From the sequence record MH717096.1: a stretch of 38,829 nucleotides of DNA; one strand, 5' to 3'. The notes below the pieces were generated by a model that saw only the letters and a list, made by a program, of their open reading frames with translations, did not search any database and had not been told where the DNA came from. Made by a program: the position numbers and the translations under genes. Shown here piece by piece: positions 19,557 through 20,969 of this stretch. Position 1 is the stretch's first letter, and each line of letters starts with the position of its first letter. The stretch comes from Escherichia phage N7.

Positions 19557-20750
19557 TCACTCCACCTTTTCATCAAGCCAATCCGCCCACCACTGCATCA
19601 TTTCTCTGCGTTTATCGAGATACTGAGCATGGTTGTAAATCCCGCGCACAGATCCGCCGTTGGCATGTGCCAGTTGCACTTCAATAGCATCAGCAGGCCA
19701 TTCGTGCTCGTTCATAATCGTGCTGAATTCATGCCTGAATCCGTGACCGCTTTCCAGACCCTCATAGCCGATTTGTTTGATCACAAGTAGCACCGCGTTC
19801 TCGCAGATTGGCTTCTTCTTATCGTTGCGCCCGGCAAAAACAAATTCTGATACTGGTTTAGTGATGGAGCTTAGCGTAGTGAGAAGTTCAACCACCTGGT
19901 CTGACATCGGGACCACATGAATTTTGCGTCCCTTCATCACACTGGCGTCGATGGTGATAATCCTGTTTTCAAAATCGACGTTCTTCCATAGCATGGAACG
20001 AAGCTCTTTCGTTCTTAGGGCTGTGTAGCGTAAAACTTTGGTCGCAATGAGCGATACGATACTTCCTGAAAATGTTGCCAGTGCTTTGTTGAATGCAGGG
20101 ATCTGGTCTGCAGGAAGAAACGGGAAGTTCTTCTTGCGGTATCCCTTCATGGCGTCAGCAAGGTCAGGTGCCGGGTTATATTTAGCCCTACCAGTGACAA
20201 TAGCGTAACGGAAAACCTCGCCGCATCTTCTGCGTGCTTTGTTGGCTCGCTCCATTGCACCGCGATCTTCAAATCTGCGGATTACTTCCAACAGTTGCAT
20301 CGGCTCAATATCCTGAATCTCAAGACCGCCGATGATGGGTAAAATGTCGTCATCAAACATTTTGGCAAGTTCAGTTGCATAGCCTACTGACCAGACTTGC
20401 TTCTTGTGCTCGTACCATTCCTTGTAAATCGCACTAAAGGAATTGTTGTTAGACGAAGCCTTTTTCGCCTTTACCGGATCGATGCCAACCGAGATGTCTT
20501 TCCTCGCGGTCCATGCTTTATCCCTTGCTTCCTGCAAAGTCATAAGCGGATATTTTCCGACGGTCAGGATTTTCTCCTTACCGTCAATCTTGTAGCGAAG
20601 CTGCCATACCTTTTTCCCTGACACAGGGACATAAAGGTACAGGCCATTACCATCGAGTAGGCGGTATGGTTTTTCTTTCGGCTTTGCTGCTTCAATCTGC
20701 TTAACGGTGAGCATGGGTAAAAATCCGGTGGGTAAAATTATTTTATCCAC
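19557..20750 (-). CDS. int: tyrosine integrase (P4/arm-type family)
   Basis: 397 aa; N-terminal arm-binding-like segment (KPYRLLDGNGLYLYV); C-terminal catalytic region with HGFRHEF and RGIYNHAQY; GTG start. Confidence 0.9.
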   Translation of the reverse strand: MDKIILPTGFLPMLTVKQIEAAKPKEKPYRLLDGNGLYLYVPVSGKKVWQLRYKIDGKEKILTVGKYPLMTLQEARDKAWTARKDISVGIDPVKAKKASSNNNSFSAIYKEWYEHKKQVWSVGYATELAKMFDDDILPIIGGLEIQDIEPMQLLEVIRRFEDRGAMERANKARRRCGEVFRYAIVTGRAKYNPAPDLADAMKGYRKKNFPFLPADQIPAFNKALATFSGSIVSLIATKVLRYTALRTKELRSMLWKNVDFENRIITIDASVMKGRKIHVVPMSDQVVELLTTLSSITKPVSEFVFAGRNDKKKPICENAVLLVIKQIGYEGLESGHGFRHEFSTIMNEHEWPADAIEVQLAHANGGSVRGIYNHAQYLDKRREMMQWWADWLDEKVE

Positions 20751-20969
20751 TTTTTACCCGTCATGGAGTGCGGCTGTCAACGATCTGACGCGAACCATGA
20801 CGAACTGTGAATCTACGGAAGGCTTGATATTCAGGGGATTTTGCGGACTGGCACGGATGGTGGCGAACTGATAAATGGTGTCCCCTGCAGACATCTACTT
20901 GGCGCGGCAGGGGATTGATTGGAATGGTGTTTTTTAGATGTGAAAAATATTTTACCCGCTATTTTACCC
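20715..20969. other. candidate attP (arm-type 8-mer repeats flanking a tRNA-3'-end-like core)
   Basis: Five copies of TTTTACCC/GGGTAAAA at 20715, 20730, 20752, 20950, 20962 flank a 15-nt core at 20876-20890. Confidence 0.55.
20876..20890 (-). other. attP core candidate: minus strand reads CTGCAGGGGACACCA (tRNA acceptor 3' end + CCA)
   Basis: Plus strand TGGTGTCCCCTGCAG; its reverse complement matches my recollection of the 3' terminus of E. coli tRNA-Arg(CCU) argW; same orientation as int. Confidence 0.5.

Follow-up and report, generated by a model that had tools for sequence, protein, structure and literature searches.

The genome of Escherichia phage N7 (MH717096.1) contains a short region (20715–20969) that separates xis (torI) from int (intS), both of which are encoded on the minus strand. 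This arrangement raises the question whether the region is the phage attachment site attP and, if so, with which bacterial site it recombines and which proteins take part. The window analyzed in this study, i.e. the whole stretch of 38,829 nucleotides, represents a P22-like Lederbergvirus mosaic with Sf6, HF4s and HK620 as nearest relatives; its first 25 kb are covered to at most 58% by the best deposited record. As outlined below, the region is almost certainly the attP of an HK620/Sf6-like temperate phage of the P22 type (Lederbergvirus).

Gene products and relatives used for comparison

The int gene (intS, 19557–20714, minus strand) encodes a P4-like tyrosine integrase of 385 aa, which is identical to IntS of E. 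coli K-12 in all positions (385/385). Its start is the ATG at 20714, which yields this IntS-identical protein, and not the GTG at 20750 selected by the ORF finder. Pfam analysis of the integrase revealed the domains Arm-DNA-bind_3, Phage_int_M and Phage_integrase, which fits an IntS-type architecture; an N-terminal Arm-DNA-bind_3 domain (DUF4102) in combination with the catalytic domain is characteristic of P4-like integrases that use tRNA 3' ends. In K-12, int is located directly downstream of the tRNA gene and in the same orientation, an arrangement designated 'STI' (PMC2951348). The xis gene (torI/hkaC, 20964–21164, minus strand) encodes a recombination directionality factor (RDF) of 66 aa, which is identical to K-12 TorI (66/66). 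TorI is the RDF (excisionase) of prophage KplE1, also referred to as CPS-53 (PMC2951348).

A first scan of viral contigs with the integrase yielded only copies with 99–100% identity and had no phylogenetic depth. More diverged relatives were Klebsiella phage Chronis, the Erwinia phages Midgardsormr38, EhrS_49 and phiEt88, and Salmonella phage g341c, whose TorI homologues show 39–88% identity. In these relatives, xis, about 250 bp and int follow each other in this order on a single strand.

The common core originates from argW

The 15-mer CTGCAGGGGACACCA lies on the minus strand at 20876–20890 and is the sole match in the window, even if two mismatches are allowed. In K-12, the annotated tRNA-Arg gene argW with the anticodon CCT (289–363 of the K-12 segment) ends with the same 15 nt, and the 15-mer reads in the direction of int. 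The first-pass annotation of this DNA had pointed out the 15-mer, proposed its identity to the 3' end of argW and compared its orientation to that of P4-type integrase systems. The sequence comparison, the read direction and the Arm-DNA-bind_3 architecture of the integrase bear out all three statements. The position and the argW origin of the core could thus be retained, and only its length has to be corrected: between the window and the bacterial site, the identity extends one base past the 15-mer, to 20875, and comprises 16 bp. The attP common core is consequently CTGCAGGGGACACCAT (20875–20890, minus strand), i.e. the argW 3' end extended by a single base, as defined by the attL and attR boundaries in K-12 and by the annotations of HK620, Sf6 and CUS-3. 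The core of KplE1 also comprises 16 nt (PMC2951348).

ARAGORN did not detect a tRNA gene anywhere in the window, and since no complete tRNA gene is present, the 15-mer is a tRNA fragment, as expected for an attP. A search of 20500–21500 against Rfam with permissive thresholds gave nothing meaningful, and every match was far below the gathering score.

Within the core, the heptamer TGCAGGG (20883–20889, minus strand) does not vary among the six lineages. On its two sides are the inverted sequences G(A/G)TGT(C/A) and GACACC, the latter being replaced by GACAAT in phiEt88, and the inverted repeat around TGCAGGG is perfect in g341c and EhrS_49. The invariance and the inverted flanks suggest that TGCAGGG is the overlap region and that GATGTC (20890–20895) and GACACC (20877–20882, both minus strand) are putative core-type half-sites in inverted orientation. 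Judged from the sequence, strand exchange would occur in the 7-bp TGCAGGG between these half-sites. Just 5' of the core-type half-site, at 20898–20904 (minus strand), the window has CCGCGCC, and HK620, Sf6 and K-12 have CTGCTTC. This spot in the P arm, with three substitutions, is the most divergent point of an otherwise approximately 97% identical attP.

Prophage junctions confirm the position of the core

In E. coli K-12 (BW25113), intS directly follows argW, and torI is located 10 kb away, beside dsdC. With the core as anchor, attL of K-12 follows the window at about 97% identity from 20890 towards lower positions and is unrelated to it at higher ones. For attR, an identity of about 97% holds as far down as 20875, and the sequence beyond this point is unrelated. 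Together, the breaks at 20890 (attL) and 20875 (attR) delimit a common core of 16 bp, CTGCAGGGGACACCAT. The prediction that integration places int beside the tRNA gene at one end of the prophage and xis at the other agrees with this K-12 layout at both ends.

A survey of complete E. coli genomes gave a consistent picture. The region was matched in 1,901 of 5,426 genomes. Junctions were read in 40 records sampled across the match ranking, and in 38 of them the match covered window 20560–20890 (intS and tRNA-Arg) and ended exactly at the core. A virtual attB, constructed by joining the K-12 flanks at the core, was uninterrupted in 911 genomes, several of them with 100% identity, which represent an empty attB. 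In the prophage-derived records CUS-3 and vB_EcoP-611R6, the match likewise stops at 20890, the core.

These junctions also bear on the possibility that attP is located elsewhere and that the 15-mer is coincidental. The first-pass annotation had named 19213–19556, between the AT-rich ORF and int, as a location that would speak against its proposal. This segment is non-coding and adjoins int, as would be expected for a lambda-like int-attP order, but the prophage homology continues unbroken through it and breaks exactly at 20890 and 20875. In addition, the tRNA-like 15-mer, which matched argW, has no second copy in the window. A location in 19213–19556 is thus excluded, and an attP at any place other than 20715–20969 is extremely improbable.

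Besides the integrated copies, an uninterrupted attP (int, core, torI) was found in 17 E. coli chromosomes. In strain ET729 (NZ_CP100927.1, 1481480–1522090), the genes from terminase to lysis repeat at a distance of about 38.5 kb on both sides of attP. Because of this repetition, ET729 is either a tandem double lysogen at argW or contains an assembly duplication.

Six arm-type sites flank the core

The octamer GGGTAAAA and its complement TTTTACCC occur five times in 20715–20969 and seven times in the 38.8-kb window, where 0.86 copies are expected; none of 100 shuffles reached seven copies. Three exact copies lie on the int side. The first (20715–20722) reads GGGTAAAA on the plus strand, and hence TTTTACCC in the orientation of int, abuts the int ATG and is probably P'4; four lineages retain it, and g341c and phiEt88 have TTATGCCC instead. 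The second (20730–20737, plus strand) is probably P'3, and the third (20752–20759, minus strand), which overlaps the -10 element of the int promoter PintS, is probably P'1. The other two of the five copies belong to the P arm and are found on the minus strand at 20950–20957 and, 12 bp apart from it, at 20962–20969; the latter contains the stop codon of xis (TAA, 20964–20966).

A sixth, degenerate site, GGATAAAA (20741–20748, minus strand), was recognized by its sequence and is probably P'2. In the relatives it reads GAGTAAAA or GAGTAAAT, and in g341c and phiEt88 GGGCACAT or GGGCATAA. The five copies on both sides of the core and their role as arm sites had been correctly recognized before, but the degenerate copy had been missed, and the number of arm sites has to be raised to six.

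In attL of KplE1, the sites are named P'1 to P'4; all of them contain TAAA, and P'1 lies over the -10 element of PintS (PMC2951348). The four sites on the int side of the window, which begin at 20715, 20730, 20741 and 20752, match this layout; the P and P' numbering of single sites in the window is our own assignment. Because the TorI motifs, the TAAA-containing sites and the overlap of P'1 with the -10 element agree with the published module (PMC2951348), the five copies of GGGTAAAA/TTTTACCC are regarded, by analogy with KplE1, as real arm-type sites.

The relatives provide further evidence. Positions and orientations of the six arm sites are kept across six lineages, and in g341c and phiEt88 all six change together to GGGCATAA or TTATGCCC. 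In the same two phages, the N-terminal domain of Int is only 58–59% identical to that of IntS, in comparison to 87–91% in the phages that keep GGGTAAAA; outside of this domain, Int of phiEt88 is 76–81% identical to IntS. This joint change of the arm sites and the Int N-terminal domain supports the interpretation of the octamers as arm-type sites.

It could be argued that the five octamers are excisionase (RDF) sites or plain promoter elements, since they are A/T-rich and located near the int start, and one of them overlaps the -10 element of PintS. This is very unlikely for several reasons. The TorI sites are separate pentamers (GTTCG, GATCG or GTCCG) at 20781–20868, TAAA is present in the published P' sites of IntS (PMC2951348), and two of the octamers belong to the P arm, where no int promoter is nearby. 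Furthermore, the octamers of phiEt88 and g341c change with the N-terminal domain of Int, whereas the RDF-type repeats of phiEt88 change independently.

Another exact copy of GGGTAAAA occurs within the coding region of int (20337–20344, plus strand); its equivalent in HK620 (829–839) is annotated as an attP repeat.

TorI sites, the int promoter and IHF-like sites

Five TorI sites were found on the minus strand between the core and the P' arm sites. Three of them, I5 (GATCG, 20781–20785), I4 (GTTCG, 20791–20795) and I3 (GTTCG, 20801–20805), are spaced with 10-bp phasing, and I2 (GTCCG, 20844–20848) and I1 (GTTCG, 20864–20868) form the second block. For KplE1, the motifs GTTCG, GATCG and GTCCG were reported at five sites, which are arranged in two blocks on the int-side arm (PMC2951348), and both motifs and layout correspond to those of the window. 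Five same-strand GWYCG pentamers in about 115 bp contrast with approximately 0.45 expected (Poisson P of about 1e-4), and their occurrence by chance is unlikely.

In phiEt88, the three phased TorI sites are replaced by other repeats with 10-bp phasing, CGATGTAACC, GCGTTACC and GCGTAAAT (about 2530–2600 of the phiEt88 record). The different repeats at these positions suggest that the RDF specificity has changed independently of the core and of the switch of the arm sites.

The promoter of int, PintS, lies inside the P' arm. Its -35 element TTGACA (20775–20780, minus strand) is invariant in the relatives and adjoins TorI site I5, as in the published module (PMC2951348). The -10 element TAAAAA (20751–20756, minus strand) follows after a spacing of 18 nt and is overlapped by the arm site at 20752–20759. 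A promoter is annotated at the equivalent position in the HK620 record (1224–1273). A scan for consensus promoters missed PintS and gave a weaker alternative, and PintS was placed from the published mapping. The first-pass annotation had also overlooked all five TorI sites as well as the intS promoter, which shares bases with one of the arm sites.

The IHF consensus WATCAANNNNTTR has no exact match in the region, and only candidates with one or two mismatches were obtained. A putative IHF-like site in the P' arm, TATCAAGCCTTCC (20817–20829, minus strand), is a partial match, and its ATCA(A/G) recurs in five of the six lineages, with AATCAC as the variant in g341c. The second candidate, AATCAATCCCCTG in the P arm (20908–20920, minus strand), differs from the consensus in one position, and its CCCCTGC is conserved in all six lineages.

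An ORF of 46 aa similar to hkaB (20831–20971, minus strand) extends from the P arm across the core into the first TorI sites. It is annotated as hkaB in HK620, gene 17 in Sf6, gene 18 in g341c and ORF36 in Midgardsormr38, and if it were a real gene, the repeats might reflect coding or regulation. This is very unlikely, since integration would split the ORF, a Pfam search with it gave no match, and its sequence is fully explained by the overlapping arm, IHF-like, core and TorI sites. The ORF is probably an annotation artefact that arose because this non-coding region is under dense constraint.

Proposed course of integration and excision

The exchange at argW and the resulting gene positions follow from the junction comparison, and the roles of the single sites are carried over from KplE1, on the basis of identical proteins and near-identical sites. 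IntS would recombine the 16-bp core CTGCAGGGGACACCAT with the identical 3' end of the host gene argW, which encodes tRNA-Arg(CCU), and the core copy contributed by the phage would restore the tRNA. IntS is expected to bind the GGGTAAAA-type sites, which comprise two direct repeats in the P arm and two direct and two inverted repeats in the P' arm, via its N-terminal arm-binding domain; the catalytic domains would act at the core, and the arms would be bent by IHF. After integration, attL would carry int and its own P'-arm promoter directly downstream of argW, and attR would carry xis at the other end of the prophage. Excision presumably depends on TorI bound to the five GTTCG-type sites that separate the core from the P' arm sites. 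As in KplE1, PintS is probably repressed by both TorI and IntS.

Comparison with known systems

The closest counterpart is KplE1 (CPS-53) of E. coli K-12, which possesses IntS, TorI and a 16-bp core identical to that of N7. Its att arms are approximately 97% identical to those of N7, and this conservation extends to all arm sites, to the five TorI sites and to PintS; among the few substitutions, the three exchanges directly 5' of the core are the most notable. In K-12, the module belongs to a defective prophage remnant of 10 kb that has become fixed in the chromosome, whereas the N7 module is present in the attP configuration and in a complete P22-like genome. The KplE1 module was dissected biochemically and genetically and is common to HK620, Sf6 and CUS-3 (Panis et al. 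2010, PMC2951348).

HK620 (AF335538) and Sf6 (AF547987) show the same order of int, attP and hkaC (xis), and the core is annotated at the equivalent position. Their attP is about 96–97% identical to that of N7 at the nucleotide level, and outside the module their genomes are mosaics of another composition. In the HK620 record (2001), the flanking repeats are also annotated as 'attP', including the copy in int that corresponds to window 20337–20344. The att sites of KplE1 have reportedly been mapped by Panis et al. in 2007 and 2010, and the accounts of HK620 and Sf6 are said to be those of Clark et al. (2001) and Casjens et al. (2004), respectively.

Kapi1 and CUS-3 resemble N7 in that they integrate at the argW 3' terminus and that their prophages have int at one end and xis at the other. 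In Kapi1, Sf6, HK620 and KplE1, attP is located between int and xis, and the genes are consequently found at opposite prophage ends (PMC8787464). For Kapi1, a duplication of 17 bp was reported (PMC8787464), in comparison to 16 bp between the N7 window and the K-12 attB.

Phage lambda and N7 have in common a heterobivalent tyrosine integrase, arm-type and core-type sites, IHF and an RDF for excision. In contrast to lambda, which has the order attP-int-xis and the Xis sites on the P arm, N7 has the order xis-attP-int and the RDF sites on the P' (int-side) arm. Further differences are the autoregulated int promoter inside attL and the use of a tRNA 3' end as target. The earlier statement that the order is unlike that of lambda is thus correct, as int and xis are not adjacent on one side of attP.

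Because the core is annotated in the records of HK620 and Sf6 and the sites of KplE1 have been mapped in publications, the attP of N7 is an already known and documented HK620/Sf6/KplE1 module, and its layout is not unusual. This published model module is known for int and xis at opposite ends, for autoregulation of the integrase inside attL and for RDF sites on the int side. Its assignment to N7 establishes where the phage integrates (argW), which ends the prophage has and which proteins carry out the recombination, and is thereby useful for annotation, for the prediction of lysogeny and for the design of junction PCRs, without adding new biology.

A second argW-derived segment upstream of xis

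Just upstream of the ribosome-binding site of xis, a second segment derived from argW was detected, TTGCAGGTTCGATTCC (21184–21199, minus strand), which corresponds to the 5' strand of the T-arm and the T-loop. These 16 nt of argW end at the first base of the core and thus represent the left flank of attB. The same 16-mer occurs upstream of torI in K-12 (10255–10270 of the K-12 segment), HK620, Sf6 and strain ET729, with copies at 1677–1692 and 3121–3136 in two of these records. In the direction of xis, the segment follows a terminator-like hairpin (21213–21232, minus strand).

In the diverged relatives, the core of this 16-mer, GTTCGATTCCC, is found 15–18 nt before the ATG of xis in Midgardsormr38 (two copies), g341c and phiEt88, and it is absent upstream of xis in Chronis and EhrS_49. 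TorI-family loci were additionally retrieved by protein similarity, a procedure that does not favour loci with the motif. Among 64 distinct upstream regions, the motif in the form GTTCGATTCC was present in 41 with at most two substitutions (26 exact), always at the same distance of 19–21 nt before the start of xis. Further upstream, the sequence beyond GTTCGATTCC belongs to at least five unrelated contexts. The fixed distance and the unrelated contexts indicate that GTTCGATTCC marks the left edge of the xis-attP-int cassette.

With regard to its origin and role, TTGCAGGTTCGATTCC may be a relic of a longer block of tRNA identity, a recombination boundary or a regulatory site. That it is a functional element of the module and not a relic, either as a mimic of the left half of attB or operator that acts on xis via Int or a host factor, or as a boundary for cassette exchange, is a tentative suggestion and rather doubtful at present. 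In a literature search with a coverage that excludes the primary mapping papers, TTGCAGGTTCGATTCC was not found in the context upstream of xis.

Some more specific explanations of the element were considered and rejected. A T-arm hairpin is not supported, as inspection of the sequences showed no conserved stem; RNAalifold gave only a weak GGUUCG:CGAACU stem near the start, which is disrupted in Midgardsormr38 and phiEt88 and shows no compensatory exchanges. The element is also unlikely to serve as an operator for TorI, since it persists in phiEt88, where the RDF-type repeats are different. The cII site (TTGC-N5-TTGC) annotated in HK620 is not conserved in the relatives.

The region downstream of int

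An AT-rich ORF of 171 aa (18697–19212, minus strand) is located between the tailspike gene (16530–18659) and int, and a Pfam search with this ORF gave no match. At the same position, Sf6 carries the O-antigen acetylase gene oac, and g341c possesses gtr-type genes. The HF4s record contains a feature annotated as 'flippase' inside the region that matches window 19365–21400. The 171-aa ORF is a candidate for a lysogenic-conversion gene, i.e. a gene for O-antigen modification.
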